Shown here one piece after another: positions 1 through 20,754 of a stretch of 64,000 nucleotides of DNA (the stretch's first letter is position 1; the number at the start of each line of letters is the position of its first letter). Below the pieces are notes generated by a model, which saw nothing but the letters and a program-made list of their open reading frames with translations, was not told the DNA's origin and searched no databases. The stretch spans positions 1 to 64,000 of IMG/VR virus record IMGVR_UViG_3300048691_000181. The stretch is one strand, 5' to 3'. The stretch comes from a virus. Made by a program: the position numbers and the translations under genes.

Positions 1-485
1 AACAGAGAATCCAAGTCGGTTTCCTGAAGTGCTTCGTAGTCCAGTCCGATGAAAAGCGGTGGTTCGGTTTTCGGCGACTTGAACTGGAATTCGATAGCAT
101 CAGAAGTTTGCTGGCTTCCCCAGAGGCTCTCAACCAGAGAGTCAACCTCCGAATAAGAACGTGGCAGTTTCAGCTCGAATTCGACATCTTCAGTCGCATT
201 ATGCGCTGCAACTGCCATGTGCAACTTCCGAATTGAACCTTCGTGCATGTCAGAGAATCGCAAATCTTCTTCAGATAGAATCTGAAGCAATTGGTCGCAA
301 TTTGAAGCATCGAACTTCAAATTGACCAAAGGCGATTGAGCTTGGAGCTGTGGTCTTAAGCTTGGCAATGGCTCTGCTTTGTCGAGCAGGTTGAGGCAAG
401 CAAGTGTGCTTACCATGTTTTCAATTGCCATGTTCCAGAGCTTAAAGCTCGATGGAACAAGTGGCGTCATTTTTGCTGGCGTCAT
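1..485 (-). CDS. hypothetical protein, truncated by left window edge
   Basis: Manual translation: open frame MTPAKMTPLVPSSFKLWNMAIENMV... from ATG at 485 with no stop before position 1; same strand as neighbours. Confidence 0.6.
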   Translation of the reverse strand, partial: MTPAKMTPLVPSSFKLWNMAIENMVSTLACLNLLDKAEPLPSLRPQLQAQSPLVNLKFDASNCDQLLQILSEEDLRFSDMHEGSIRKLHMAVAAHNATEDVEFELKLPRSYSEVDSLVESLWGSQQTSDAIEFQFKSPKTEPPLFIGLDYEALQETDLDSL

Positions 486-819
486 TTTTTGCTTGATTTT
501 CAGTGTAACACATTCTCTTAACAAGCGAATACTCCCAATAAGGAGTAGCGGCCAAGAGCATTAATTTAAGGCTTTTAAGCCTCTTCTTATCTTCCCCTTC
601 TCTTAATGCGTACATCGCATTAAAGTAGCTTAGAAGAAAGAAAACACGGCTTCCTGTCCAATATAGCTGAAACAGAAGTAACAACATAGACTGAGAAGGT
701 CTATTCATTACTAAGGTTAAAGAAACTATATACACTGATAAGAGTATCAGTTGACACGTGGCGTGTTTTAGGGAAAGAGCTAAAACGTGGGAAGAGAGGA
801 TGGGCAAGAACTTAGCCAT
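442..819 (-). CDS. hypothetical membrane protein
   Basis: Track ORF 442..957; likely start MAKFLPILSS at 819, just after the upstream stop; hydrophobic segments. Confidence 0.5.
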   Translation of the reverse strand: MAKFLPILSSHVLALSLKHATCQLILLSVYIVSLTLVMNRPSQSMLLLLFQLYWTGSRVFFLLSYFNAMYALREGEDKKRLKSLKLMLLAATPYWEYSLVKRMCYTENQAKNDASKNDATCSIEL

Positions 820-820
820 A

Positions 821-1477
821 TCATGCTCCCTTTTGCCCAAATGAATGAAGGAAATCACACGCGATTTCATTGGCATAAGCCAAATATTCCCGCAAGATTT
901 TTCCTTCTCTGTAGTCCATGCCAACTCCAGCTTTAATCTTAACCGATGATTCAACATGCATACAATTTGTACGCTCGTTGAACTTCAAGTCAAAATTAAT
1001 TTGGGTTAGCCCAAACTTAGCGAACCAGCCTCCTCCGAGCTCAATACAGAGCTTCTTAGGAACATAGCTACCTCGTTTTTGGAGCCACATTTTACCCATG
1101 CCTGCTCGAATTGTCGTAGCAGCAGTGGGTGTGTTTTCGATGGCATTGATGAGGCATTGGGGAATATGCAGCCCTGTTTTGGAAGCTTGATTTCCATAGT
1201 CCCTCATTCTGCTGTGGAAGCAGAATTCCTTCCATAGGGTGATGAAATGTGCTTCATGAGGCACATTACATACAACAGTTGGATAGCCGACTTTCCAGTC
1301 GACTGGTTTCAGTTCCATCTTTTCGTAGTTGTGAGCTGAGCCTACGGGTTGCACCTCTCGCTGGTTGAAGGTACGAAATCCGTAGCGCATAGTTTCTGTT
1401 CCTTGAAATACTTCAAGTACATGGAATGCGCTTTGGCTCAGGTCGAACTGGTATTTACAGAGCTTTTCCATTGCCAT
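821..1477 (-). CDS. hypothetical protein
   Basis: Track ORF 821..1495; start probably ATG 1477 or 1471, overlapping the L7/L12 gene end. Confidence 0.55.
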   Translation of the reverse strand: MAMEKLCKYQFDLSQSAFHVLEVFQGTETMRYGFRTFNQREVQPVGSAHNYEKMELKPVDWKVGYPTVVCNVPHEAHFITLWKEFCFHSRMRDYGNQASKTGLHIPQCLINAIENTPTAATTIRAGMGKMWLQKRGSYVPKKLCIELGGGWFAKFGLTQINFDLKFNERTNCMHVESSVKIKAGVGMDYREGKILREYLAYANEIACDFLHSFGQKGA

Positions 1478-1715
1478 TGCCCTTCTCTTTTTCAATTTTC
1501 ACAATCGCTCCATGCTCTTCAATAGCAGCCTTAATCTCTAAGGCTCTTTTTTTTGTAACATTTTTAGCAAGCGTGCCGCTACCTCCAAAGTATGGCATTA
1601 TTTCCTTGGCCTCTTTGAGGCCAATATCAAGCGTGAATTTAATTGCCTTGCAGCAACTAAGCTTATTTGGACCTTCGTCAACAAGGATGACGAGGCACTT
1701 AGGCGATTTATCCAT
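1455..1715 (-). CDS. rplL-like: ribosomal protein L7/L12 (bL12) C-terminal-domain protein
   Basis: VILVDEGPNKLSCCKAIK...IGLKEAKEIM...LAKNVTKKRALEIKAAIEEHGAIVKIE matches the bL12 CTD pattern (GLKEAK motif); no N-terminal dimerisation domain or hinge. Confidence 0.85.
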   Translation of the reverse strand: MDKSPKCLVILVDEGPNKLSCCKAIKFTLDIGLKEAKEIMPYFGGSGTLAKNVTKKRALEIKAAIEEHGAIVKIEKEKGNGNGKAL

Positions 1716-1718
1716 TTA

Positions 1719-2492
1719 TTAAGGTTTAGCCTCCGCTGGAGGCGGTTTTCCAATATAATCAATTGCCTGTATTCTCTCTAAATAAGACTTAGGCAATTGA
1801 AATCCGTCTTTCACTGCTCTCTTATGAGCAGCATTGATTGAAGCCCAATATTCTTCAGAGGGCTTCAACGGGTTATGTATGTCCTTATTCAACGACCATG
1901 AGGTCACATTAAAGAACATGATTCCTCCTTCTGGAATGACGTTTGGAATCCCTGCCGATTCTCCCAATTGAGGGAAAATCGAAGGTGTTTCTCGAACGTC
2001 ATTCTGTACTGCATGGAGCGGATGCCAGTTAGACAGCAACATATAGTGATTTCCCTCACCAGAGAAATCAGAATTGTTACAGCCTTCCTTCAGCATCAAT
2101 GGAGACCCAAAACGAAGTGCTATCTTTGGTATCGCAAAGACACCAATATAGCAAACGTCTGTTTCGTCTCCTTGTCTCAATGTAGCCTTTCCCTCTACGG
2201 TTGAGAATTCAAGGCTATCTGCCAACCAAGCCTTCTTCTGGAAGGAGAGTTTGACAAATGGAAACTTGTACCAACCGACAAAGTGTGAGCTGAACAGGTC
2301 TTCATTTGGAACGTCCATTCCAATTTCCTTAAAGGAAGGAGCTAAACGTTCGATGAAGTTTGAAGCTTTGAATAAAGCTCCATACGTGCCAATCAGCACA
2401 AAATCTTTAGCTGGATTGCCACGTCCAGCAAGATTATAGTCATTTGGCGCTAATTCAATTCGAGGAATTAAATCCTTATTGAATGGTTTCAT
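1719..2492 (-). CDS. hypothetical protein
   Basis: 257-aa ORF, tightly packed with neighbours. Confidence 0.7.
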   Translation of the reverse strand: MKPFNKDLIPRIELAPNDYNLAGRGNPAKDFVLIGTYGALFKASNFIERLAPSFKEIGMDVPNEDLFSSHFVGWYKFPFVKLSFQKKAWLADSLEFSTVEGKATLRQGDETDVCYIGVFAIPKIALRFGSPLMLKEGCNNSDFSGEGNHYMLLSNWHPLHAVQNDVRETPSIFPQLGESAGIPNVIPEGGIMFFNVTSWSLNKDIHNPLKPSEEYWASINAAHKRAVKDGFQLPKSYLERIQAIDYIGKPPPAEAKP

Positions 2493-2728
2493 TAGTCGCC
2501 ATAGTTATGAAACGAAGACACTAATTCAGTTGTAACAACTGAAAATAGTGCTCCAATGAGCAAAGTTGCCTGTACCGCACTATAATAGCCAATTTGTGGC
2601 ATATTAAACTGCGGTACGTCTCTTGCAATTCCATTCCAAAATACCATTACCAAGAATGGTGAAATTAGGAATGTTGAAACTAAGCGAACTGCAAACTTTG
2701 CAATTTTTATTTTTTTTTGCTTTTCTAT
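2492..2728 (-). CDS. small two-TM membrane protein with apparent non-AUG (ATA) start
   Basis: Manual translation IEKQKKIKIAKFAVRLVSTFLISPFLVMVFWNGIARDVPQFNMPQIGYYSAVQATLLIGALFSVV...; its TAA overlaps the next ATG (TAATG). Confidence 0.5.
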   Translation of the reverse strand: MEKQKKIKIAKFAVRLVSTFLISPFLVMVFWNGIARDVPQFNMPQIGYYSAVQATLLIGALFSVVTTELVSSFHNYGD

Positions 2729-2973
2729 TAGTACAGTAAAAATTTGTAGAACAATGCAACTTCTTCGATTCTATGACTTATTCCTTTTTTATTGCACCAG
2801 TCAAGGCACAAAGGGAGAAAGTGGCTTAGAATCAAAATAAAGAGCATTGTCCAAAGCTTTTGAATAACGTCTGCTTCATACCAGAGGAATATGACTAAGC
2901 TCAATAACCCTATCAGTGCTAAGAATATTAGGCTGATACTTATGGTTACGGCTTTTTCAATCAACGCAATCAT
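2728..2973 (-). CDS. small membrane protein
   Basis: 81 aa with two hydrophobic stretches. Confidence 0.55.
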   Translation of the reverse strand: MIALIEKAVTISISLIFLALIGLLSLVIFLWYEADVIQKLWTMLFILILSHFLPLCLDWCNKKGISHRIEEVALFYKFLLY

Positions 2974-3029
2974 TCAATCCAAAGATTGATGTGTCTCTGG
3001 CGTAGGTATGTGTTCCAATTATTTTTCAT
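2970..3029 (-). CDS. 19-aa mini ORF (MKNNWNTYLRQRHINLWIE)
   Basis: Fills the gap after the TROVE gene; ATGA overlap with the next gene. Confidence 0.3.
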   Translation of the reverse strand: MKNNWNTYLRQRHINLWIE

Positions 3030-3041
3030 TGGAAGTTTATT

Positions 3042-4559
3042 TTACTGGTTACGGAAAGACACAGTCGAATTTGTATCTCCTTTTTCCATTGGATTGGCTA
3101 TGCCATTTTGTTGGCATATCCATTCAAGGAAATAGTCGGAGTGACCGTGAATCCGTGTAAACATGGATTGAACCTCAGTCCCATATTTCTCGGCATGTGC
3201 CTGAACGTTCATAACGAACTGACGTTTACAAGCCGTAATAACGGGGAATTGAGTATCCCCTAACTTATTTGCTGAATCTCCTCTCCAAGAAACTTGGAGC
3301 CTGTTATCACATTCTTCTCCATCGCAGAAAAGAAAGATATTAGAAGCCGAATGGCTTGGATTGGACTTTATGTCCTTCTCAACTGTAGCAAAGAAGTCGT
3401 ACTCGAATATGCCTCCGCCTTGCAGCTTGTACTTTCTTTCGAGTTTATCTCCTGCATCCATTGAGAATATATTCTCAAATAATGCAAGTCTATCTTCTTC
3501 ATTGAGCTTTATGTGAAGCCCAATGTCTTTTCCATTATTTGGTGCACTTGTATCTCCAGAGAACCAAATTTCACATTCTTCGCACACCAGCGATAGCATA
3601 TATGCCATAAGTATAGCAGCATGCCTTCGCTCCATCCTTCCTCCTCCGCCAGAAGCGATTGGGTGCTTCATACTTCCAGACCAGTCAATTCCGATATGTG
3701 TCATGCCAGGAATCTTTTTAATTCCCTTGTGTGTGAACATATTGAATATCAGCTCTTGAAACAATGGAGCGAAAGAGCTATTGTTCACAGCATTAGCATT
3801 CAGCTCGGTTTTATAGAGAACCGTAGGTGGCATCAAGCCTTTCGGCATTTTTGCACGCAGGTTCTCTTCGAGCCATGCTCTATCTATGCCTAACTCATCG
3901 GCAAATGGCATCGAATTGATGTACGCGATTACATTCAATTCGATTAGCTCCATCTTGGCTTGGTCAATAGACAGAGCTTTGAATGCACTTGGCATCGAAG
4001 TGTTTCCCCAACGAGACAACGTCTCTAACTTCTCCCAGTTCACCTTTGACAGTTTACCGATTGAAGTTGCGCTGTTCGCTTTTGTATATGTTTCATATAC
4101 CTGTCTAAGTTGTGGAAGAACAGGTAAGGTAGGTTCGTCGAGCAGTATCGTATCGATGAGTGGTCTGACCGTGCTGGTCAAGGACATACCTACTACACGG
4201 AACTTCATGATATGCTCGAACAGTTTTTGAGCTTCACTTTCTTTCAGAAAGACAGAAGCCCAATGTATCGTATACATCAGTATTGGCTGATGTAGTAGGA
4301 GTTCAGGTACGAAGCTCGCCAATGCAGGCGTAGGCGCGTACTTGAAAACAATAACTATGTATGCCGCGATAGAACTTTGAAGCTTGGCCAATTGCATCAA
4401 ATTCTTTGCAGCGTCGTAATCGTCGTAGATTAAATCTACGTCATGAGATTGGCTCTTAATCAATGGCTCAATCTCGTTAACAACAACTTTTTGGACGAAG
4501 CTGTCATTTTCCTGCAATATGAATTGCGAGAAAATTCCAGCTAACGTTTTTTTTTTCAT
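3042..4559 (-). CDS. divergent Ro60/Rsr-like TROVE + vWA protein
   Basis: C-terminal vWA with MIDAS GIDWSGSM followed by RRHAAILMA, IFLFCDGEECD, FVMNVQA and FTRIHGHSDYFLEWI, resembling bacterial TROVE C-termini; helical N-terminal two thirds; 505 aa. Confidence 0.7.
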   Translation of the reverse strand: MKKKTLAGIFSQFILQENDSFVQKVVVNEIEPLIKSQSHDVDLIYDDYDAAKNLMQLAKLQSSIAAYIVIVFKYAPTPALASFVPELLLHQPILMYTIHWASVFLKESEAQKLFEHIMKFRVVGMSLTSTVRPLIDTILLDEPTLPVLPQLRQVYETYTKANSATSIGKLSKVNWEKLETLSRWGNTSMPSAFKALSIDQAKMELIELNVIAYINSMPFADELGIDRAWLEENLRAKMPKGLMPPTVLYKTELNANAVNNSSFAPLFQELIFNMFTHKGIKKIPGMTHIGIDWSGSMKHPIASGGGGRMERRHAAILMAYMLSLVCEECEIWFSGDTSAPNNGKDIGLHIKLNEEDRLALFENIFSMDAGDKLERKYKLQGGGIFEYDFFATVEKDIKSNPSHSASNIFLFCDGEECDNRLQVSWRGDSANKLGDTQFPVITACKRQFVMNVQAHAEKYGTEVQSMFTRIHGHSDYFLEWICQQNGIANPMEKGDTNSTVSFRNQ

Positions 4560-4576
4560 AAATTACGGGTTAATGT

Positions 4577-4720
4577 GTTCCTGTTTAAGCATCTTTTTTA
4601 GAAATCGATATACTCTTTTGATTTGCAGTCAAGAGTCTATATATCGTATTCTTCATTAGGTCAGCTCGTGGTATGCTATGTGATATAGCGAATTAACGAG
4701 TCTGTTTCTTAAACAGGAAC
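4577..4720 (-). ncRNA. structured RNA upstream of the TROVE gene (candidate Y-RNA-like or leader RNA)
   Basis: Perfect 13-bp terminal stem GTTCCTGTTTAAG (4577-4589)/CTTAAACAGGAAC (4708-4720) enclosing two hairpins, one capped by TTGA-CTGCAAA-TCAA. Confidence 0.55.
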
Positions 4721-4737
4721 GAGTTTAAAACGACTTA

Positions 4738-4902
4738 CTATCTGTCCACTGGACAGTTAGCGCAACCGCCTGTTGCGCAATTTGACCCGCTACAACCGCC
4801 TTTGAAGGCAGTGCAAGTAGCAGGTTTTGGTCCAGTAGACCCTTCGACTTTATAAGTCGGAATTGAATTTGAAATGATTGGATTTTTCATACCAGTTGCC
4901 AT
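4738..4902 (-). CDS. 54-aa Cys-rich peptide
   Basis: Manual translation MATGMKNPIISNSIPTYKVEGSTGPKPATCTAFKGGCSGSNCATGGCANCPVDR, ending in tandem TAG TAA. Confidence 0.6.
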   Translation of the reverse strand: MATGMKNPIISNSIPTYKVEGSTGPKPATCTAFKGGCSGSNCATGGCANCPVDR

Positions 4903-4957
4903 TTGAAATTGTTAATTTTGCCTTGTAGTAGAGCCCCTTTTTTGGAGGGCGCAGATG

Positions 4958-5137
4958 CTACTTAGCGAAAAAGAGTGAACAGGCGCGTGCCCATCCACTT
5001 GTTTCAGCGATTTTAACCGCAGCCTGAGCCGCAGTTAGGTCGCTACCCATTCCTACACTATTTGGCACTTGAGCCAAACGAAGAATGGATTCTCGTTGTT
5101 GTGCCACCTTTTCGAGGTTGGCTCTATGTTTTTCCAT
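4958..5137 (-). CDS. 59-aa hypothetical protein
   Basis: Manual translation MEKHRANLEKVAQQRESILRLAQVPNSVGMGSDLTAAQAAVKIAETSGWARACSLFFAK; fills an intergenic gap. Confidence 0.55.
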   Translation of the reverse strand: MEKHRANLEKVAQQRESILRLAQVPNSVGMGSDLTAAQAAVKIAETSGWARACSLFFAK

Positions 5138-5160
5138 TTGACAATCTCTATTTAGGTTTC

Positions 5161-6234
5161 TTAATAATTAAATATGTATGTTAAATATTGATCTGCTACG
5201 TTATAGCCCTGATAGGGTCTAATACGTGTCTGAATTCTTTCTGATCTGAAACCACTTTTCTTCAGAGCTTCAATACCGCAATCAATACGTGCTTGAGCTA
5301 TTTTCTGATTTTTTAGTTTCGTTCCAGTACTCGAACTTGCTCCAATGACGAGTACTTGAGCTGTCTTGGGAATCTTATCCACAAAGGATAAGATTCCGTC
5401 TAATTGCTCAAACGACAAATCTGAAGCTCCTGCTTTAAAATGCAGGGTTAGTGTTTCGGATTTAGCTTGTTTCTGAATTGGCGCTTCCTGTTTTTGCTGT
5501 TCAAGAACTTCAGTACGTTGAAAAACGCGTTGAATCTTGGAAAGCAAAAAGGAATCGTTTTTCCTCAACGGTTCTGTTTCTTGACGAACCAAATAGCTCG
5601 TCAATTGGACAATTGCTTGTCCAAAAACGCTGTCGTTCAATAGGCGGTCACGTGTTTCCTGAACGGAAAACACAGGAGCGGGTGCTTGAACGACGGGTGG
5701 TTTCGCTTGCCGCTGTTTTTTAAACAGCGGCAAGCGAACAAATACGCGTGGCGTAACCACGATGTCGTGTTTTCCGCGAATAGCATTGTCAAGCCCATCT
5801 GGAACCGCAATGTTGCGTTCCCCAGATAAACTAACACCTATAACGGTGTTAGCTTTGGTACGCCATTGGGCGCCCATTGCAACGTTTGCGTTTGCGGCTG
5901 CGTAACGGAATGGACGGGCTGTAATGGAGCCTTCTCCGAAGAGTTGGAACCGATTGCCCGTTTGAATTCTGGCTCCGATTTCACCGTATCCGTGGTCGCG
6001 TACAAAACTGCCGAGACGTAAAGCGCGATAAGCCACACCAGTAAAAACCCCGCCTGTGATGTTTGGGGTAATAGAAAAATCATAGCCCAAACGAAGGCCA
6101 ATTTCAGACCCCGCCTTTGCGGTCTCGAAATCAGTATAAGCGATGGGAGCTGCCAATCGCGTTTCAAGAGTGAGTTGAGCATTAGCGACAGTTGTTGTGG
6201 CTAAGATAGCCACAATTAAAAGAATCTGTTTCAT
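5161..6234 (-). CDS. OmpA-family outer membrane protein
   Basis: Sec signal (MKQILLIVAILATTTVANAQ), amphipathic beta-strand region, C-terminal OmpA-like domain (LHFKAGASDL...VLVIGASSSTG...NQKIAQAR...GFRSERI). Confidence 0.8.
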   Translation of the reverse strand: MKQILLIVAILATTTVANAQLTLETRLAAPIAYTDFETAKAGSEIGLRLGYDFSITPNITGGVFTGVAYRALRLGSFVRDHGYGEIGARIQTGNRFQLFGEGSITARPFRYAAANANVAMGAQWRTKANTVIGVSLSGERNIAVPDGLDNAIRGKHDIVVTPRVFVRLPLFKKQRQAKPPVVQAPAPVFSVQETRDRLLNDSVFGQAIVQLTSYLVRQETEPLRKNDSFLLSKIQRVFQRTEVLEQQKQEAPIQKQAKSETLTLHFKAGASDLSFEQLDGILSFVDKIPKTAQVLVIGASSSTGTKLKNQKIAQARIDCGIEALKKSGFRSERIQTRIRPYQGYNVADQYLTYIFNY

Positions 6235-6283
6235 AAAATCAAGTGTTTTTTGTGGCTTTCGCCGTTTATTTTTTTAATTAAGC

Positions 6284-7381
6284 TCACAAATCGTCGAGCT
6301 TTTGTAGTTGCCACTTCTCGATAATGGCAACAAGATTAGCCCCATAATTTGGGTCAGTGGCATAATGCCACTTTTGTAATGACTCTGCCCACCTTTTATA
6401 GTTTGCATTCTGCCTTGCTAATGCAGCATACTTACCATAATAGACAGATTTGTCCGTTAGCCATTCTGAATGGGCGCGATAGCTCTCCCAAGCAGAGGCG
6501 AAATTGCGATAGCGCTCTCCTGCTTTGTCACCTTTGTGAATGGTGACAATTGGGCTACAATGCCCAGAATCGCAATTCTTCTCCCAACACTTAATGCCAA
6601 AATGAGCATTGTGTTGGGAGGCTAAAATAGACATTCCATTTGCTGACTCCAATGCTCCTTGAGCAAGGATAATTGAAGCTGGAATGCCAAATTTGTCCTT
6701 TTCGCCGATAGCAATTTTTGAGAACCTCTGAAAGTAAGAGGCTCTCTGTTGGTCGGGCAAAGATATAGAGCTCACCGACTTTGTTGAGACAAACTGAGCT
6801 GTTCCTCCTTTTGGAAGGGAGGGTTCAATTCGTTCTATTCCGTCGGTAGCCAGCTCCTTCGCTGGAGCTTTGATAAGAGTCGTAGAATTCTCTACAATCC
6901 CCTTTATTTGCCTTCTAACAGACTTTTCTTGTGTCTGTGGTACACTGTGGTTCATAGCCCCAACATAACCTAAGAAACAAGAAATGGTCAATGCCCCAGC
7001 AGCAAGTAACCCTAAGAAGAGATTTGCTTGTTCCGCATCACGGAATTCAGCGTACTCTTCTAAACCCGCATTGTACGGGTTGTTTTTTAGGGTGACGAGA
7101 TAGTTTCTCCATCGCTTGACGAACCGAGAAGCGCGCCATGCCATTGCTGCGAATAGGCAGAATGACACGATGAAAACTATCTGACTATAATTGGCAGTCG
7201 GATACCAGACCGACATACCAAAAGCAGCAAGTGTGGAAATAGACATGCCGACTGCTCCCCTGATTAGGGTTTCAATCAGATGTTTCTTTAGCCAGACAGC
7301 CGCCTGTTCGGTCAATTGGCCGACATCTGCTACAATGGCAGGAAGCACCTCGTAACGGTGCTTGTTCACAGTGCCGTTCAT
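6284..7381 (-). CDS. membrane-anchored GH73 glucosaminidase (FlgJ-like)
   Basis: GIPASIILAQGALES, HFGIKC, F.SAWESYRAHS and YATDPNY motifs; three N-terminal TM segments. Confidence 0.9.
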   Translation of the reverse strand: MNGTVNKHRYEVLPAIVADVGQLTEQAAVWLKKHLIETLIRGAVGMSISTLAAFGMSVWYPTANYSQIVFIVSFCLFAAMAWRASRFVKRWRNYLVTLKNNPYNAGLEEYAEFRDAEQANLFLGLLAAGALTISCFLGYVGAMNHSVPQTQEKSVRRQIKGIVENSTTLIKAPAKELATDGIERIEPSLPKGGTAQFVSTKSVSSISLPDQQRASYFQRFSKIAIGEKDKFGIPASIILAQGALESANGMSILASQHNAHFGIKCWEKNCDSGHCSPIVTIHKGDKAGERYRNFASAWESYRAHSEWLTDKSVYYGKYAALARQNANYKRWAESLQKWHYATDPNYGANLVAIIEKWQLQKLDDL

Positions 7382-7390
7382 GTTTGTTTT

Positions 7391-7648
7391 TTATTTTATA
7401 GAGCCGTATTTGGCATTGAATGCCTTTATACGGTTACCAGATTCAATTGGCCCTAATTGAGCCAACTCTTCCTTAAACTCGTCCGACATACTGTCGGTTT
7501 CCGTTCGAGGGATTTGAACCCCGTAGGGTTCGAGCTGGAAGTCTTGGAGACAATTGTTCTCCAAGATAAAGTCCAGCAGCTCCGTTTCCCCTTTAGCTAA
7601 CTCTGCCAATATAGCATCTCTAACTAAAGGGCGTACAATCGCTCTCAT
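7391..7648 (-). CDS. hypothetical protein
   Basis: 85-aa ORF with an A-rich leader. Confidence 0.6.
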   Translation of the reverse strand: MRAIVRPLVRDAILAELAKGETELLDFILENNCLQDFQLEPYGVQIPRTETDSMSDEFKEELAQLGPIESGNRIKAFNAKYGSIK

Positions 7649-7727
7649 GGGATTTGTTTTTATTCTAAGCTATTATTGTCTCTTTTCCATGTATATGGAT
7701 AGTTAGAGAATAATAATGGCTTAGGAG

Positions 7728-7976
7728 TTAGAAATTACGGAATGCCATTCCATCGAACTCGAAGAATAGGGCGCTAACCCATCCTGAATCCAATTTGACC
7801 ATTCCGTTTTGTTGAAGGACTTCAACAGGAAACTTAATAGGCTCCATCCCATTACCGACTTTGGTAAGGGTTGAAGCAGATAGTCTCCTGTTGAAGCCCG
7901 TTAATTCGACTGCCACAGGCTTATTCTTCTTTTCAGGAAGAATCGCCTTCGGCAGAATTGGATTAGCCATAACCAT
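7728..7976 (-). CDS. hypothetical protein
   Basis: 82-aa ORF, co-oriented with neighbours. Confidence 0.5.
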   Translation of the reverse strand: MVMANPILPKAILPEKKNKPVAVELTGFNRRLSASTLTKVGNGMEPIKFPVEVLQQNGMVKLDSGWVSALFFEFDGMAFRNF

Positions 7977-8144
7977 TTTTCAGTTGCGGTGGCAACGCCC
8001 CCTCGTTCAGAAGCTTCACTAACCTATTGAATTCTTATACTACGTATAAGAATCAATATAAGGTACGTGCGTTATGCGTACCTTATTATATGGTTACATT
8101 GAATTCTAAAACAAAGGGACGTTGCCTCATTTTGAGTAACGTTT

Positions 8145-8984
8145 CTAAATCCTCCGAATGCCATTTACCCGAACCCAAGAGATGGGCTGGGTTGGTTTTG
8201 AAGGGAGATACTTGACAATCAGACAGAATCCCTTATCAGGGAAACTGTAAAAAATGTAAGCAAATCCACCTTCCTCAATGGCGCTCATGTTCTCGAGCTC
8301 CACCAATGGGAGCTCTTTGCCCATGATTTCTAATTGAGCTCTCGAATCGGTCAAGAAACGAATACGAAGAGGCACTGAATCTGCGTTGTACGCCGTTTGT
8401 TCTTTTGGAACAAACGCATACTGTGCAGACACAGAATAGCCCGTTAGAATGAAAAGAAATGCCACTGTAAGTACTTTCAACCCCTTCTTAGGGGGTTTCA
8501 CCATCCATAATATAATTGTGATTAGCACCAATAGCAAAACTGGGAACCAGCTACCATGCGAAGTACCAGAAGGTACTTCTATGATGTGACCATCAGCTTG
8601 AGCATTAGCTGAAACAAATAGGCTCATAGCTAAAGCGCTAAGACCTATTTTTTTCAGGAACTTACTCTCATTAAACACACCATCGACAAATCCCACTACT
8701 GCAAACAAGCAGAGTGCAATCGTCAAAAATCCCATCATTCCAGTAGGGTCTGGATTAGGATGATGGACTGCTACAGTCTCTTGAGCCACAGCCAAGAATG
8801 GCATAGTTACAAGAGCCGAAATTGCCCTTGTTGTGTGGCACCCTTTGCCCAATGCCGAAAAGCAAAGGGTCATGAAAACTGCTCCTGCAATAATGGAGCA
8901 CGCTACGACTTCGGACATCGTAGCGAATAAAAGGCAGACTACTGCCATTCCGAGGGTGGCCAATTGGCCTGTTTGTTTTGTCAT
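8145..8984 (-). CDS. multi-pass membrane protein with repeated signal-peptide-like segments
   Basis: Hydrophobic segments ending in AVAQ, ANAQ and VSAQ, preceded by basic residues. Confidence 0.65.
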   Translation of the reverse strand: MTKQTGQLATLGMAVVCLLFATMSEVVACSIIAGAVFMTLCFSALGKGCHTTRAISALVTMPFLAVAQETVAVHHPNPDPTGMMGFLTIALCLFAVVGFVDGVFNESKFLKKIGLSALAMSLFVSANAQADGHIIEVPSGTSHGSWFPVLLLVLITIILWMVKPPKKGLKVLTVAFLFILTGYSVSAQYAFVPKEQTAYNADSVPLRIRFLTDSRAQLEIMGKELPLVELENMSAIEEGGFAYIFYSFPDKGFCLIVKYLPSKPTQPISWVRVNGIRRI

Positions 8985-9251
8985 TTTTAAAATGAAGTTT
9001 TTAAAGTAAAACTTAATCGGGGTAGTAGCCTAAGCCACTACCCCAGAAAAGAAACTTTGTTCTCAATCACAAGAACAGATTCAACCTCCTAACTGGAGCG
9101 AGGAACCTGTTTTTCTTTAGTCTAAGCGTACTTCTCTAACTTTCCGATACATTATAAGGGAGCATGAAAAGAAGTGCTTAGAAAGCAATTATTTTAAAAG
9201 GGAAAGGGAAGCTAATTCACAAATGAGAAAAGAACCCAATCCCTAATATTG

Positions 9252-9343
9252 TCGCATGTTTGGGACTCGAACCCAAATCTTTTCTCTATTGAAGAAGAAC
9301 GTGTCACCTCCCTCTCTTATCAAGAGGCTACCACCGACATGCG
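9252..9343 (-). tRNA. tRNA-like RNA with a hairpin inserted in the D arm and an 8-nt loop CUUCAAUA (UCA-containing)
   Basis: Acceptor CGCATGT/ACATGCG; T arm TTGGG-TTCGAGT-CCCAA; anticodon arm TTCTT-CTTCAATA-GAGAA. Confidence 0.6.
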
Positions 9344-9534
9344 TAAAACTCGTTCTGGAATCTAAACACAACAAAAAATTCAGAACCAGAACGAGGTATC
9401 TTTCTCTAAGGGCGGCTCATTATAATTCGAGAACCCGAAGAGAAATTCCTTAATTTAGAAGAAGCTAAAAAACCGTGTTCAAGAAATAAGATTATTTCTC
9501 AAACACGGAACCTAAGAACTTCATCTAAAACTTG

Positions 9535-9607
9535 TGGACAGTACGGGACTCGAACCCGTGTCTTATGGTTTTTATGCCATCCAGTTACCGCTACTTTACA
9601 ACTGCCC
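9535..9607 (-). tRNA. tRNA-like RNA, 8-nt loop CAUAAAAA, identity undetermined
   Basis: Acceptor GGGCAGT/ACTGTCC; T arm ACGGG-TTCGAGT-CCCGT; ATGG-CATAAAAA-CCAT. Confidence 0.65.
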
Positions 9608-9680
9608 AATTTGACTACTTTTTTTAAGGGAACATAGTCATACCCCACTAAATCTAAATCTAAATCTAATAAAATTTTTT

Positions 9681-9869
9681 GACCCGTAAAGGATTGAAAC
9701 CTTTAGCCGATAATAAACCCAGTGACCAACTCTTTGATTCCCCCTTGTTCCCGAAGGAAGCTCGTGGAATGCTCGAATGGTGTACTTTATTTCGGTATGC
9801 CTATATTGTTCTTTGCATGCCATTCAACCTTGCGGAAGAAAGCGAAAGTAATAAATATAGATAACGGGT
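9681..9869 (-). ncRNA. about 190-nt RNA with tRNA-like ends and a pseudoknot-prone core
   Basis: ACCCGT/ACGGGT closing stem; T-arm-like AAAGG-TTTCAAT-CCTTT; internal CTATATT/AATATAG, TTGAATGG/CCATTCGA and TTCC-TTCG-GGAA. Confidence 0.45.
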
Positions 9870-9873
9870 ACTG

Positions 9874-9946
9874 AGGAGAAGACGGGACTCGAACCCGTAT
9901 AACCTGACTTTCAAGTCAGGTGCTCTACTAATTGAGCTACTTCTCC
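9874..9946 (-). tRNA. tRNA-like RNA, 8-nt loop CUUGAAAG
   Basis: GGAGAAG/CTTCTCC; D arm GCTC-AATTAGTA-GAGC; CCTGA-CTTGAAAG-TCAGG; T arm ACGGG-TTCGAGT-CCCGT. Confidence 0.8.
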
Positions 9947-9954
9947 ACCTCGGA

Positions 9955-10260
9955 TTAACCGAGCAATTCACCAGCCAAACGGCTGATGCTATTGATACGT
10001 TCCTTGTCAATACTGTAATAAATAAACTTGCCTTGGCGTTCCGTAGCAACAACACCTGCACGACGTAAAATAGCGAGGTGTTGCGAAGTAACTGATTGTT
10101 CCAAACGGAGTTTGGTGTACAATTCATTAACTGCCATCTTTTCGTTTTCTTCTAACAGCTCGAGAATTTGCTGACGGACCTTGTGGTTCACAGCGCGAAG
10201 AACCAATAGCGCTTTACGGATGTTGGCGTAGTCTGCTACGCCTTTTTTAATATTTTTCAT
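9955..10260 (-). CDS. ArsR/SmtB family transcriptional regulator
   Basis: LRAVNHKVRQQIL...V.EL...LEQSVTSQHLAILRRAGVVATERQGKFIYYS winged HTH, of the Bacteroidota type. Confidence 0.92.
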   Translation of the reverse strand: MKNIKKGVADYANIRKALLVLRAVNHKVRQQILELLEENEKMAVNELYTKLRLEQSVTSQHLAILRRAGVVATERQGKFIYYSIDKERINSISRLAGELLG

Positions 10261-10301
10261 TTTTAAATGAAATTTAAGTCTTGAGACATTTCAAGACCAA
10301 G

Positions 10302-10374
10302 TGCGCCCTAAAGGAATCGAACCTTCTACCTCTTGCAAACCTAAGCAAGTGCTCTGCCATTGAGCTATGGACAC
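10302..10374 (-). tRNA. tRNA-like RNA, 8-nt loop UUAGGUUU
   Basis: GTGTCCA/AGGGCGC; D arm GCTC-AATGGCA-GAGC; CTTGC-TTAGGTTT-GCAAG; T arm GAAGG-TTCGATT-CCTTT. Confidence 0.75.
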
Positions 10375-10380
10375 AAAACC

Positions 10381-11100
10381 ATCACGTAGAAACTAATCTA
10401 CGTCCCAGACGCTTCTCTTTGAGAAATCAAAGAGAAGCTGTTTAATCCGAGCATTTCAACTCGGTATCTAACTTTTTTATTACATCTTATCCAGAAGGTT
10501 AATTACGCCTCCTGAATAAGATGCTCACTCTCTTTACCAGTCTTTGCCAGAGATACTGGGATTCTACGTGCAATAGTAGGTAATACACTCCTTGCGGAGG
10601 AAAGGCTCCTTGCGGACACCAAGCACGAATAAGGAAAATCTATCCTTTAATAGCCCTGTTATTTAACAGGGAAATGTGGATTCGCACCACATTTAGAATC
10701 TTTCTACTCCAAGCCACTCCTATTCTATTAGATTGTTAGTGGTACTCGTAATTGGTACTTAATTTTTTAAGAGTGATTTAGCCGACCAATCAGCAAACCT
10801 TCACTCCGAGCCACTCTGTTTTTCAGTGGCAACTCTTCTTCGTAATCTCCTCTACTCCCATCTCCTCTAAACTCTACGCTTGCAATCGTAAAGAATAAAG
10901 TTGAATCAGCCTCTCGGCAATTAGAGAATCCTTCCCAGTCTCTCTCTGGGCTTCTTTCCGTTGCGTATACTACGGGTCATTTGTGGTTTAAGGCTTGAAG
11001 TTTTACCACAATTCGTTGGACTATGATTGTCCATAGCACCCTGCTTTCACCCTGCAGGTCGAGGCTCGATTGGTCGCCCTTGAATTAGGGCGAGCCTCTA
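10381..11100 (-). ncRNA. large ornate non-coding RNA candidate (about 720 nt)
   Basis: No ORF >=60 aa in the track; more than 12 hairpins, two TCC-GCAA-GGA tetraloops, T-loop-like AAATGTGG-TGCGAAT-CCACATTT, a long-range 9-bp complement; flanked by tRNA-like genes. Confidence 0.65.
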
Positions 11101-11154
11101 ATATTTAATTTCATTAAATTGAATATTATTCTCACCAACATTGGTGAGACAAAG

Positions 11155-11227
11155 TGGTAGTGAAAGGACTCGAACCCTCTTTCCCCTTCGTTTTATAACG
11201 AAGCGCTCACCCATGAGCTACACTACC
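11155..11227 (-). tRNA. tRNA-like RNA, 8-nt loop UUAUAAAA
   Basis: GGTAGTG/CACTACC; D arm GCTC-ATGGGT-GAGC; CTTCG-TTATAAAA-CGAAG; T loop TTCGAGT. Confidence 0.75.
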
Positions 11228-11244
11228 TTATCCTTAATGCCGTA

Positions 11245-11922
11245 TCAATGAATCAATACGGCATTAAGGTCAATTGCTGCCCATAATTTAGACCCGACAG
11301 CAAGGTCTCTTTCCTTAATGACTATATCTCTGAAAGAATAATAGTCATTAAGGTTTTTAACTTGGAACGCAAATGCATAGAGTAGCATCTGCGCCAGTAA
11401 ATCCTCGGGTAAGATAAAACCCGAGAAGTATTTGTTCTCCACACGTGACGCTTTGGCATATTTGCCTTCAAAGTCATAGTGGCCTGCATTTGAGTATCTG
11501 TTCGCAACACATTGTTGCACATCAGATACTATATTCAAATGGATAGACCCAGAAGAGTCTATCTTGCATTGCCTCAACTGACGTGTGAAGCGTACGACCG
11601 AGGACACGAAGTCACTCGGTTTCAGTGTGGGAAATAGCTGGACAAGTTCCAGCTCTCTCCCGACATAGGGATGAGTAGTATAACGGCTATGCTTAAAGCC
11701 GTTATATACGTGAAGTTTGGAGTGGTAATTGGTATCCACTCGGGTTTCTTCCCCGAATTTATACTCCAGCTCAATTCCAACCTTGTCGATGCCCTTGAAC
11801 AAGAGCCTGAAACAGGCATACATGGAAGGACTCCATGATGCCTGATTCAAACCCTTACCCAAACCGCGAAACAGGGCAGCTATAAGCCACCCCATTTCGC
11901 GGGTTTTGTATTTTGTTCCCAT
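11245..11922 (-). CDS. putative amidoligase (COOH-NH2 ligase fold) protein
   Basis: Ordered motifs VGIELEY, ELE, SGSIHLNI and RVENKYF resemble amidoligase/glutamate-cysteine-ligase-like enzymes. Confidence 0.5.
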   Translation of the reverse strand: MGTKYKTREMGWLIAALFRGLGKGLNQASWSPSMYACFRLLFKGIDKVGIELEYKFGEETRVDTNYHSKLHVYNGFKHSRYTTHPYVGRELELVQLFPTLKPSDFVSSVVRFTRQLRQCKIDSSGSIHLNIVSDVQQCVANRYSNAGHYDFEGKYAKASRVENKYFSGFILPEDLLAQMLLYAFAFQVKNLNDYYSFRDIVIKERDLAVGSKLWAAIDLNAVLIH

Positions 11923-12269
11923 TAGAAAAGCAATGGAAATTTGTTTTTAATCTTCTGCTCCTCCGTAGAAGGAAGAGCGTTGAAGATTGAACGAAAATTG
12001 CTCGCATTCCAATTTGAGCAGCTTTGGGGATTGATACCGCCCTCTGCCAATTCGGACAGGATGCAGAATAGTCCGCCTGTTTTGCAGGCGCGCTCCCAAT
12101 CGATACTGGGAATGTTAGTTGATTTGATAACGGTTTCAGCAACGGGGACAACTGGTACAACAGGAGCCGTCATAAGGGAAGCCAACATAGCCTTCCCTTC
12201 TTTCGTTGTGAGCTTCAATCCAGCAGCTCGTACAGCAGCCTTAGCTGCTTCGTTTGTCAATCCAGTCAT
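11922..12269 (-). CDS. hypothetical protein
   Basis: 115 aa; TAATG coupling with the next gene. Confidence 0.65.
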   Translation of the reverse strand: MTGLTNEAAKAAVRAAGLKLTTKEGKAMLASLMTAPVVPVVPVAETVIKSTNIPSIDWERACKTGGLFCILSELAEGGINPQSCSNWNASNFRSIFNALPSTEEQKIKNKFPLLF

Positions 12270-12524
12270 TGTTAGATGAGTTTTATGGATTCATGAGCAT
12301 GCAATATCGCAGCTCACTTATTCTTGACCACGCAGAACAACTATGTTTTTTATGACATAACCCGCGTGGCAATTTCTTAGTCAGTCTCTTCAGCTATGGT
12401 AGACTAATTCCATAGGACAGCACGAAGGCTGTTTCGACTTTAACCGATAAAGAAATAAAAACTGGGGCTATCTAACGATACAGACAACCCCAGAACAAAA
12501 AATTTATTTCTTAACCAACTCATG

Positions 12525-12595
12525 CGAAGGGAATAGGACTCGAACCCTACTCTAACAGGACTAAACCTGTCGCGCACCCATTGCACTTCCCCTTC
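12525..12595 (-). tRNA. tRNA-like RNA, 6-nt loop UUUAGU
   Basis: GAAGGGG/TCCCTTC; GTGC-AATGGGT-GCGC; ACAGG-TTTAGT-CCTGT; GGTTCGAGTCC. Confidence 0.65.
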
Positions 12596-12705
12596 CTACT
12601 TAACATTGCACGGATTAATGACCGTGCTCAATTTGCCAATTCCGTTTCACTCCATTTGCCAATGAACGTGTGTTGCTAACCCTGCAACAAGGTTTCAAAA
12701 GAGAA

Positions 12706-12909
12706 CTACAATTGGCTCTCTACCGTCTCCACACTTAACATAACCGAAGCGGTTACGCCATTGTGGAGAAAAGTTCCCCAATAATGGGGCATGAAATCGT
12801 CACTTCCCAATCCGAAAACATCGCTGCCTTCTTCCTTGGTGCACTTAGTAGATAAATCTACGAGTGCAAGGGTTTTTACCCCAAAGTGGTTAAAATACAC
12901 TTTTTTCAT
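12706..12909 (-). CDS. hypothetical protein
   Basis: 67-aa ORF starting immediately after a T-arm-bearing element. Confidence 0.5.
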   Translation of the reverse strand: MKKVYFNHFGVKTLALVDLSTKCTKEEGSDVFGLGSDDFMPHYWGTFLHNGVTASVMLSVETVESQL

Positions 12910-12984
12910 GACAAGAACAAAGGAATCGAACCTTCATGCTTAGAATTTACCTTACGTTCACTCCTCATTACGAGGCTTACTTGT
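12910..12984 (-). ncRNA. degenerate tRNA-like element
   Basis: ACAAG/CTTGT ends, CCTC-GTAAT-GAGG hairpin, T arm GAAGG-TTCGATT-CCTTT. Confidence 0.35.
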
Positions 12985-13422
12985 AAGTGCTAAACACCCT
13001 ACCCAATGTAGGATTCTTGTTGTCTTATTGGCTGTTAAAAAATAAGATAATGTCTTAATCAGAGCTAACCAACACTCACTCTGATTAAGAACACTAAATT
13101 CACTCATTCTATACACCCTGTCAAATGACGTTATCTTGACAGACAGGCATGTACACGGTTGAGGGAAACCGTTATTTTTTTTAGCTTTAAATTTTGACCG
13201 TTCAAAAGAACACGCTTTGAGCCTAACAAACTGTTTTACTTCGCTCAAACGAAGAATCGTACACGCCAAGAAGCATACAATTGAAAACAATAATAAAATA
13301 AAAAAGAATTGGTTGCACATACAACAATAATTATTGCATGTGCAAACAATTGAACGGCTTTTTAAGGCATATTTGAGGTACAAATATTGCTATTTATACC
13401 TCAAAATACCTTAAACTTTTTC

Positions 13423-14124
13423 CTAAAAATCGAAACCGATTTTATAGGAAGATTTTACGATGTCTGTGGCGTTGTTTGATAACCACAGTCCGTTTGCCAC
13501 TGCAAACTTGCTGTCAAGTACGCTACCAATTTCGGCGGAGGCTAAAAAGCCAGCCGTAAACTTTACGGCTTGTGTTTGGTCTTCAAATCTCTTTGTTGGA
13601 GCAATGCCAATATTGAACGCAACCTCCTTTGAAGTTCCTTTAGCATCAACAAGATGCCCTTTTACCCCGTAACACAGGGTTGTGCTTGGCAAACTTGTTG
13701 CGTTACCAGCAAATTCCTTGCTAAAGATTCGAGTAACGAAAAGTTTTCCGCCTTTTATAGCATTAATAATACTGGTCTCTAATGCTAATCGGTCACTCAT
13801 TTTCCAAATTCCATTTTCCATTACGTAGCCTAATGAGGCTATCGTTGAATCAAACGAGATTCCACCTTTAGCGGTGAAATTGCTAAATGGAACAGACGCC
13901 AATGAAACAGCTAATGCTGTTACGGCTTTGAGTGTTTCAGCGTTCCGCGTAGCGATTGGTGTTGCACCAACCTGAGTAGCAGGAAATTCTACACTATTAC
14001 GCGTATATACATCTTCCAAATCCGCATCTTGCGACAATGTGAAATATGTTTCAAGTTTAGTGTTTGGTTCTTGGATGTTTGCATCCGTTAAGGCTTTAAT
14101 AGCCTTGCCTTTGGTAAGTGTCAT
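13423..14124 (-). CDS. hypothetical protein, first gene of the left arm
   Basis: Track ORF 13423..14268; plausible start MTLTKGKAIK at 14124. Confidence 0.65.
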   Translation of the reverse strand: MTLTKGKAIKALTDANIQEPNTKLETYFTLSQDADLEDVYTRNSVEFPATQVGATPIATRNAETLKAVTALAVSLASVPFSNFTAKGGISFDSTIASLGYVMENGIWKMSDRLALETSIINAIKGGKLFVTRIFSKEFAGNATSLPSTTLCYGVKGHLVDAKGTSKEVAFNIGIAPTKRFEDQTQAVKFTAGFLASAEIGSVLDSKFAVANGLWLSNNATDIVKSSYKIGFDF

Positions 14125-14285
14125 ATCGTTATGATATTTAAAGAGTAAAGAATGTCTTGTCCGTTTCAGAAACGTAACACAACTCGCAAATTTTAAAGAG
14201 TTTTGAACTCTAACCAGATTCCAAGCATCCCTACCCGTGTGGGGGGGGCTGTCTTTGACTCTCGTCAAATCTATACTGGAGTGTA

Positions 14286-20579: not shown

Positions 20580-20663
20580 AGAAGTAGGAGCTCGGTAGGT
20601 AGAGCAAAGATTAAATGAAAGGCTTTAATCTTCGGAACGTGGGTTCGATTCCCACTACTTCTT
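20580..20663 (+). tRNA. tRNA-like RNA with a 9-bp anticodon stem and 8-nt loop UGAAAGGC
   Basis: AGAAGTA/TACTTCT; GCTC-GGTAGGTA-GAGC; AAGATTAAA-TGAAAGGC-TTTAATCTT; GTGGG-TTCGATT-CCCAC. Confidence 0.7.
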
Positions 20664-20672
20664 CAAAATAAT

Positions 20673-20754
20673 GCTACGATACGCTAAATTGGTATTGCGG
20701 CTCCCGTGGAGGGAGTGGTCGAAAGACGTGAAGGTTCAACCCCTTCTCGTAGCA
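20673..20754 (+). tRNA. class II (Leu/Ser-like body) tRNA-like RNA with an aberrant anticodon loop
   Basis: GCTACGA/TCGTAGC; CTCCC-GTGGA-GGGAG; variable arm GTC-GAAA-GAC; GAAGG-TTCAACC-CCTTC. Confidence 0.7.

Follow-up and report, generated by a model that had tools for sequence, protein, structure and literature searches.

tRNA-shaped modules at the ends of genes and folded RNAs in a phage genome: a candidate set of RNA processing marks

The phage non-coding RNAs C4 of P1 and P7 and CI of P4 have ends that are made by host RNase P at a transfer RNA (tRNA)-like fold, and these are single small antisense RNAs, not arrays that bracket genes and large RNAs. In plant mitochondria, t-elements set the ends of messenger RNAs (mRNAs) (Forner et al. 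2007, PMC1920247; for tRNA punctuation, PMC3790967), and in the MALAT1/mascRNA pair an RNase P cut sets the 3' end of the long RNA, with structure lying just upstream that protects this end (PMC8457004). The tRNA-like domain of a Y RNA, which has a 7-bp acceptor stem, is likewise a substrate of RNase P and has CCA added to it (Chen et al. 2014, PMC4201824), and tRNAs may sit inside the large phage RNA GOLLD (10.1101/2024.12.08.627333). A literature search found no paper describing tRNA-like punctuation in phages. Here we examine an island of tRNA-shaped modules on the minus strand of a 64,000-nt stretch of phage DNA (hereafter the window), which is the first 64 kb of IMG/VR record IMGVR_UViG_3300048691_000181, a record of 106,963 bp rated complete by CheckV. 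We regard it as an evenly balanced proposition that the minus strand at 9.25-13.25 kb is an RNA island derived from a phage tRNA island, in which the modules are cut by the host enzymes that trim tRNAs.

Eight tRNA-shaped modules were recognised on the minus strand at 9252-13020 with ARAGORN, with the Rfam tRNA model RF00005 (gathering score 29 bits) and by reading of the sequence; each is named below by its lower coordinate. Five of them are cloverleaves, with an anticodon loop of 8 nt in four and of 6 nt in one. Four cloverleaves score above the RF00005 gathering score, namely module 12525 (12525-12595; 6-nt loop UUUAGU) at 34.8 bits, module 11155 (11155-11227; 8-nt loop UUAUAAAA) at 43.9 bits, module 10302 (10302-10374; 8-nt loop UUAGGUUU) at 45.2 bits and module 9874 (9874-9946; 8-nt loop CUUGAAAG) at 65.5 bits, and the fold z-scores against shuffled sequences were -3.3, -3.5 and -5.4 for modules 12525, 11155 and 9874, respectively. 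These four, with 21 stem pairs each, hold one mismatch in total: every stem of module 9874 is perfect, and module 10302 has a single A-A mismatch at the base of its acceptor stem. The fifth, module 9535 (9535-9607; 8-nt loop CAUAAAAA), reaches 26.5 bits, which is under the cut-off; it combines a perfect acceptor stem and T arm with a degenerate D arm that has no proper D stem. This module does not qualify as a transfer-messenger RNA (tmRNA) either, as it matches the ends of that model only (20.1 bits versus 47) and ARAGORN found no tmRNA in the window. The four mimics listed in a preliminary description of this DNA, 11155, 10302, 9874 and the weaker 9535, are therefore all tRNA-shaped.

The cloverleaves retain the features by which RNase P and RNase Z recognise their substrates: the 7-bp acceptor stem, the 5-bp T stem, the canonical T loop, G+1 and, mostly, the GG of the D loop. 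Their anticodon loops, of 8, 8, 8, 8 and 6 nt, depart from the standard loop of 7 nt with U33 and a purine at position 37. ARAGORN reports module 11155 as 'tRNA-???' (ataa), module 10302 with (aggt) and module 9874 with (tgaa), and it names no amino acid for mimics with 8-nt loops because their anticodons have four bases. By our estimate, the chance that five random insertions or deletions, one per body of ~73 nt, would all fall in the 7-nt loop is ~1e-5. Comparison showed the mimics to be copies neither of host tRNAs nor of each other, and a scan with the loop pattern of module 9874 found no relatives.

The other three modules were found by reading of the sequence and are acceptor-plus-T-arm frames, in which inserts of 30-150 nt occur and the anticodon arm is missing. 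The frame at ~12910-13020, where an insert replaces the anticodon arm, has the acceptor ACAAGAA/TTCTTGT, a D-like hairpin and the T arm GAAGG-TTCGATT-CCTTT of repeat family D2, and it is recovered in the minimum-free-energy (MFE) fold. The frame at 9252-9343 (fold z -2.6; repeat families D1 and D5) has the acceptor CGCAUGU/ACAUGCG and the T arm UUGGG-UUCGAGU-CCCAA. The third lies where the preliminary description had placed a separate '190-nt RNA'; this RNA could be located at 9681-9869, but it is itself an acceptor-plus-T-arm frame with an insert of ~150 nt. Its T-like arm, AAAGG-UUUCAAU-CCUUU of family D2, abuts the 3' strand of the stem ACCCGU/ACGGGU as in a tRNA, and the MFE fold closes the frame, with 9608-9873 as a whole giving a z of -1.1, which is not significant. 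The 190-nt RNA matches no Rfam family. An A/T-rich spacer of ~5 tandem GATTTA units (9640-9680, minus strand) lies between this RNA and module 9535. Across the window, the T-loop motif GGTTCRANTCC occurs 18 times against 4.3 expected, a count that 0 of 100 shuffles reached; eight same-strand copies fall within 9263-12932, and the T loops of all eight modules keep GGTTCRAnTCC with at most two changes.

The modules adjoin the ends of mRNA or RNA units and share their orientation, with gaps of 17, 41, 8 and 4 nt. The 225-aa open reading frame (ORF) at 11245-11922, whose predicted fold is amidoligase-like, stops at 11245 and is followed after 17 nt by module 11155; a folded RNA candidate of 780 nt leads on to module 10302, from which 41 nt separate the start, at 10260, of a gene for an ArsR/SmtB-family regulator. 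ArsR stops at 9955 and is followed by 8 nt, module 9874, 4 nt and the 190-nt RNA. This order, with its coordinates and its gaps of 17, 8 and 4 nt, is as previously described and was confirmed from the ORF list and the sequence. A second instance of modules at gene ends occurs on the other strand and is counted in favour of processing: two tRNA-shaped modules at 20580-20754 (plus strand) fill the 205-nt gap between the stop of a GroEL-like gene at 20568 and the start of TerL at 20774, leaving 11 and 19 nt. Rfam scores a tRNA of 32.3 bits at 20673-20754, a further T arm lies at 20638-20655, and ARAGORN calls an 83-nt 'tRNA-Pro' within the same gap.

The preliminary description had the modules punctuating one long transcript, which the terminators do not favour. 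An intrinsic terminator, T1, with a 13-bp stem and then TTTTTATTTC (12462-12493, minus strand), lies 31 nt past module 12525, and another, T2, with a 16-bp stem and then TTTTTT (9473-9508, minus strand), lies 26 nt past module 9535. A terminator-like hairpin, T3 (9018-9045, minus strand), stands ~200 nt past module 9252 and before a 279-aa ORF, and no terminator of comparable strength was found between 12.27 and 9.51 kb. With terminators behind modules 12525 and 9535, the stretch looks like two or three units, each closed by a tRNA-like module and a terminator, and not like one transcript. Unit 1 would comprise the gene of a 281-aa ORF (13423-14268), a pistol ribozyme, a ~600-nt RNA, module 12525 and its terminator; unit 2 would run from the 115-aa and 225-aa genes through module 11155, the 780-nt RNA, module 10302, ArsR, module 9874, the 190-nt RNA and module 9535 to its terminator; and unit 3 would be short and hold module 9252. 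All genes left of ~14.3 kb lie on the minus strand, and in this arm the Bacteroidota -7 promoter motif has five minus-strand matches only (991, 1012, 6758, 10336 and 14266). The match at 10336-10343, in the loop of module 10302 and 76 nt before ArsR, was considered as a promoter and then treated as chance, since 30 nt separate it from the closest TTTG upstream, more than a promoter would allow.

Under the processing reading, host RNase P would cut at G+1 of every module and RNase Z would cut behind each discriminator base. These cuts would free the modules and, in the same step, give the amidoligase-like mRNA its 3' end and fix the ends of the 780-nt RNA, the ArsR mRNA and the 190-nt RNA on both sides. 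Hairpins lying a short way inward of these ends would shield the freed pieces, as expected if exonucleases must be survived. The units upstream of four modules do close with unusually stable hairpins, 2-12 nt ahead of the predicted RNase P site. For modules 11155, 9874, 10302 and 12525, the preceding 40 nt rank by folding energy among the lowest 1.3, 2.4, 12.6 and 14.3% of arm windows, respectively. In the first of these, a 15-bp hairpin (11234-11267, minus strand; -17.1 kcal/mol, lowest 1.3% of 40-nt arm windows) covers the stop codon of the 225-aa ORF and ends 6 nt before G+1 of module 11155; it may serve to protect the 3' end of the mRNA. Hairpins also begin 4-5 nt after modules 11155 and 10302. 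At the head of the first RNA unit, the boundary is formed by a pistol self-cleaving ribozyme (13193-13254, minus strand; Rfam RF02679, 54 bits versus a gathering score of 34.5, model positions 1-68, the full model); we consider this boundary equivalent to those marked by the mimics and count it in favour of processing as well.

The enzymes that would be needed occur in the likely host lineage. TerL and the portal protein match crAss-type families, the best GenBank relative being Cellulophaga phage phi14:2 (TerL identity 28%). The ArsR protein is 75-83% identical to the chromosomal ArsR/SmtB of many Saprospiraceae, so the host is probably in that family. On these sequence comparisons, this is a crAss-like phage that probably infects Saprospiraceae. 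In a Saprospiraceae genome used as a stand-in for the host (G020), RNase P RNA of type A (RF00010, 244 bits) and RNase Z (TIGR02651, 324 bits versus a cut-off of 293) are both present. The tRNA genes of this genome encode no CCA, and the CCA-less mimics thus resemble ordinary RNase Z substrates. The earlier proposal that the mimics are cleavage signals is in this way partly supported, by acceptor and T-arm determinants that are intact, by the placement of the terminators, by the end hairpins and the pistol ribozyme and by the enzymes of the likely host lineage; from this anatomy and these enzymes we infer co-transcription, the cuts and processing as a selected trait.

Two large RNAs would be released in this manner. 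The candidate at 10375-11154 (780 nt, minus strand) is non-coding and strongly folded, with no minus-strand ORF of at least 40 aa; its z is -7.7 and its MFE -261 kcal/mol on the minus strand, against -8.8 and -235 kcal/mol on the plus strand. A hairpin at its 5' end, 5 nt past the mimic, is accompanied by several GNRA-capped hairpins and a repeat of family D4. A motif, GAGUGGCUYGGAGU (14-17 nt), occurs three times at 10703-10867, spaced 51 and 97 nt, and could be a repeated binding or docking site. No Rfam match was found in 10375-11154 up to E = 10, the GOLLD and ROOL models included. Searches of the 4.2-kb island by blastn against GenBank phages returned generic tRNA matches only, those against 86 related-phage loci (blastn and nhmmer) returned no homologue of the large RNA, and a scan for two copies of the motif returned none in viral contigs and 29 places in metagenomes, all of them unrelated tandem repeats. 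With no homologue to compare, the large RNA is put forward on the strength of its folding energy. The second RNA is the ~600-nt strongly folded stretch from the pistol ribozyme to module 12525 (12596-13192, 597 nt, minus strand; z = -7.1 from 100 shuffles), whose ORFs are limited to one of 67 aa and a TTG ORF overlapping the ribozyme and which contains the module at 12910-13020.

Of the genes in these units, the 115-aa ORF (11922-12269, minus strand), known from the ORF list, is the first of the second unit and has no Pfam or PHROG match. The amidoligase label given earlier to the 225-aa ORF holds at the level of the predicted fold, where the Atlas structure comparison gives TM (template-modelling) scores of 0.54-0.59 to Amidoligase_2 clusters, but not on sequence grounds: nothing was found in Pfam, in PHROGs, in PDB sequence searches or in a single-protein scan of viral contigs, and among 5.8 billion proteins the sole match is the ORF itself. 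We therefore call it amidoligase-like on fold-level similarity only.

To place the island in context, relatives were collected as 80 loci through an alignment of TerL homologues, and 19 whole records were searched. Where TerL identity is ~40%, relatives encode a pistol ribozyme and a tmRNA-like gene, and alongside odd tRNA-like elements they have ordinary tRNAs for Lys, Met, Leu and Arg; these tRNAs are tightly interleaved with small ORFs (gaps of 27-84 nt) and with non-coding spacers (170-390 nt). Closer relatives by TerL, at 81%, 62% and 58% identity (P0123-P0125), were found in ENA and Logan as contigs of ~104-106 kb. In the nearest relative searched (G001), a tRNA-like match of 103 nt occupies the corresponding position, in the gap that separates the GroEL-like gene from TerL.

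Several of these observations weigh against processing as the purpose of the modules. The canonical tRNAs of the relatives stand in the same tight interleaving, which shows that modules unable to decode are not required for it; the layout was thus inherited from a tRNA island, with relaxed anticodons unnecessary. Judged from these genomes, the interleaved layout predates the loss of normal anticodon loops and belongs to the clade's tRNA island as such. Moreover, the nearest relative examined in this respect (TerL 61%) has no tRNA-like element in its 4 kb of arm. The hairpins right after modules 11155 and 10302, one of which precedes UUAAAUUU, might be weak terminators. The hairpin statistic is weaker when taken over all eight modules, with a Fisher combination of ~0.025 by our own calculation, and it is modest because the whole arm is rich in hairpins. 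The folding energy of the large RNA is equally strong on the opposite strand, which adds to the lack of a homologue. Finally, the preliminary description had offered punctuation as the explanation of the relaxed anticodons; yet four of the five loops have exactly 8 nt, which is a pattern that relaxation alone does not predict, and punctuation alone does not account for these uniform loops.

The strongest rival explanation starts from the modules themselves. It is possible, though we think it unlikely, that the excised tRNA-shaped RNAs are the products, serving as non-decoding decoys or ligands, for instance for host defence nucleases that target tRNA or for tRNA-binding enzymes, or as partners of the phage's own Ro60-like protein after the fashion of tRNA-like Y RNAs, and that their position at unit ends is a leftover of the tRNA island; such an explanation is compatible with processing. 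It would fit bodies that are selectively kept with loops that are uniformly non-standard. The same phage also encodes, at 3042-4559 on the minus strand, a very divergent Ro60/TROVE-like ORF of 505 aa (Atlas feature score 0.97, TM 0.65-0.68). Pfam TROVE and vWA domains occur in its weak phmmer relatives; the ORF itself has no direct Pfam match, and a single-protein scan of viral contigs found no relatives. Directly upstream lies a 144-nt Y-RNA-like element with a 13-bp closing stem (4577-4720, minus strand; z = -6.45), which belongs to no Rfam family. With the Ro60-like gene and this element 5 kb away, the mimics could act as effectors in their own right. The 19 relatives searched have ordinary tRNAs and all lack the Ro60-like protein, and bacterial Y RNAs are known to mimic tRNA, one of them with a 6-nt 'anticodon loop' (PMC4201824). 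However, the topology of the mimics is that of a normal tRNA, whose 5' and 3' ends both belong to the acceptor stem, and they do not show the YrlA arrangement of an RNA that ends in a Ro60-binding stem and holds its tRNA-like domain internally. No loop motif common to the mimics was found, the explanation names no identified defence target or binding protein, the link to Ro60 comes from one genome only, and the hairpins just before the modules, which the processing reading takes as protectors of new ends, are left unexplained.

We consider it improbable that the layout reflects the joints of gene-cassette exchange, in which tRNA-like hot spots took in ArsR and the tight spacing is a by-product. 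The ArsR gene (9955-10260, minus strand; Pfam HTH_5, E = 5e-11) is indeed a bare host ORF: its DNA homology to Saprospiraceae stops at the start and stop codons, and it was, as far as the comparison of sequences can tell, taken from a Saprospiraceae chromosome in this form. Joint capture of ArsR with a host tRNA was ruled out, as a tRNA lies within 3 kb in 0 of 80 host ArsR loci. The arm, with a G+C content of 41-44% against 35-38% elsewhere, differs between relatives, and so do the small ORFs between their tRNAs, which would also suit exchange. Nevertheless, the arm yielded no recognisable integrase or homing endonuclease, the abnormal loops and the end hairpins would be left unexplained, and a gene inserted without a promoter would still need read-through and processing.

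An equally improbable view is that the modules are decaying tRNA genes without present function, flanked by RNAs and genes that are transcribed independently. Relatives have working tRNAs at comparable places, module 9535 and three further modules are degenerate, and the large RNA lacks a detectable homologue, all of which would be expected from decay. On the other hand, the cloverleaves have almost perfect stems and every loop is altered, and this restriction of the abnormality to the loops argues against simple decay, as do the T-loop motif kept in 8 of 8 modules with at most two changes and the further modules of this type in front of TerL, behind the GroEL-like gene.

At the left end of the window, three ORFs of 224, 171 and more than 174 aa lie at 3-1498 on the minus strand, each +1 in frame relative to the one before it and overlapping by 137 and 83 nt. 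They were considered as one DUF6057 gene in need of four-base decoding, and this was rejected, since only the middle piece matches weakly and the profile positions do not fit a single gene. That the mimics are working tRNAs with expanded loops, reading four bases or else reading triplets while evading anticodon nucleases, is very unlikely: four loops do have exactly the 8 nt of known frameshift suppressors, the yeast mitochondrial tRNA-Thr decodes triplets with an 8-nt loop (PMC3113583), cloverleaf and D/T elbow are intact in most mimics and suppressor tRNAs are in use among relatives (called 'SeC(tca)' by ARAGORN, upstream of TerL), but several loops (UUAGGUUU, CAUAAAAA and the 6-nt UUUAGU) lack U33 or a purine at position 37, in three modules the anticodon arm is missing altogether, the one possible case of a split gene (3-1498) is unsupported as a single gene, and the standard code gives intact reading frames for the large genes, namely TerL, the portal gene and ORFs of 1426, 992 and 717 codons, so that there is no frameshift needing correction.

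Several further features of this phage and its relatives were recorded. The relative L084, at ~40% TerL identity, has its pistol ribozyme at 88-148 (plus strand; 63 bits), where it precedes a 222-aa ORF rather than a non-coding RNA. In many relatives, a tRNA with a UCA anticodon (ARAGORN 'SeC') and a tmRNA-like gene lie a few kb upstream of TerL (L006, L011, L016, L019-L023, L032, L042, L045, L046, L060 and L063; L082 at 1352-1701); such opal-suppressor tRNAs suggest TGA recoding in those phages, and both genes are absent from the phage studied here. The TerL proteins of P0124, P0135, P0146, P0153 and others are 300-400 aa longer and contain intein and LAGLIDADG domains, an insert that is missing from the TerL of the present phage, for which a single-protein scan of viral contigs found no relatives. 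Transcripts of the minus-strand arm (window 1-13500; genome 90-107 kb) are unusually structured, and this extends even into a Pfam-supported GH73 hydrolase gene (6284-7381): windows of 150 nt reach fold z-scores of -4 to -7, and 3-kb bins of the arm average -1.5 to -3.5 against about -0.4 over the central 15-78 kb.

Taken further, the processing reading leads to a more specific scenario, which we put forward tentatively and hold to be doubtful. A former tRNA island may have been turned into an RNA-maturation cassette, in which tRNA bodies, purposely disabled by one extra loop base to keep them from interfering with translation, act only as cut marks alongside the pistol ribozyme and release large folded RNAs of new classes (~780 and ~600 nt) and captured host genes, with the RNAs working together with the Ro60-like protein. 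If the cuts do occur, the island would be the counterpart, in a bacterial virus, of mitochondrial tRNA punctuation and of the MALAT1/mascRNA device. It would then offer a simple rule for locating where phage non-coding RNAs, and captured genes that have no promoter of their own, truly begin and end, and it would explain why the odd tRNAs that gene finders report in phages keep perfect stems. With a Ro60-like gene, a self-cleaving ribozyme and two large folded RNAs that fall outside every catalogued family, this arm is also a compact setting in which to study phage RNA biology.

Among the known systems, YrlA Y RNAs share with the mimics a resemblance to tRNA, non-standard 'anticodon' parts and an origin near a Ro60 gene, and they too are found in phages (PMC4201824); YrlA ends in its Ro60-binding stem, whereas the mimics end in the acceptor stem and lie 5-9 kb from the Ro60-like gene. 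The phage T4 RNAs RNAC and RNAD, which are transcribed along with the phage's tRNAs (PMC3014915), and the GOLLD and ROOL RNAs (bioRxiv 10.1101/2024.12.08.627333) are likewise structured RNAs, small or large, amid phage tRNA genes of the same strand. In contrast to those cases, the neighbouring tRNAs are here all non-decoding, protein genes are interleaved, and the 780-nt RNA matches neither GOLLD nor ROOL. MALAT1 with its mascRNA, and MEN-beta (PMC8457004), resemble the island in having a tRNA-like fold right behind a long non-coding RNA, although they are eukaryotic and nuclear and use a triple helix as protector, where the phage has simple hairpins 2-12 nt before the predicted cut. The t-elements and tRNA punctuation of mitochondria also consist of non-decoding tRNA-like folds at mRNA ends within long transcripts, where cuts by RNase P and RNase Z make the mature ends, as they may do here. 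The phage differs from them as a bacterial virus that would use the bacterial RNase P ribonucleoprotein and RNase Z, and its modules flank large non-coding RNAs as well, most being full cloverleaves with 8-nt loops. The combination, in one arm, of full cloverleaves with uniform 8-nt loops, two large RNAs without relatives, a pistol ribozyme and a Ro60-like gene is what sets this locus apart.

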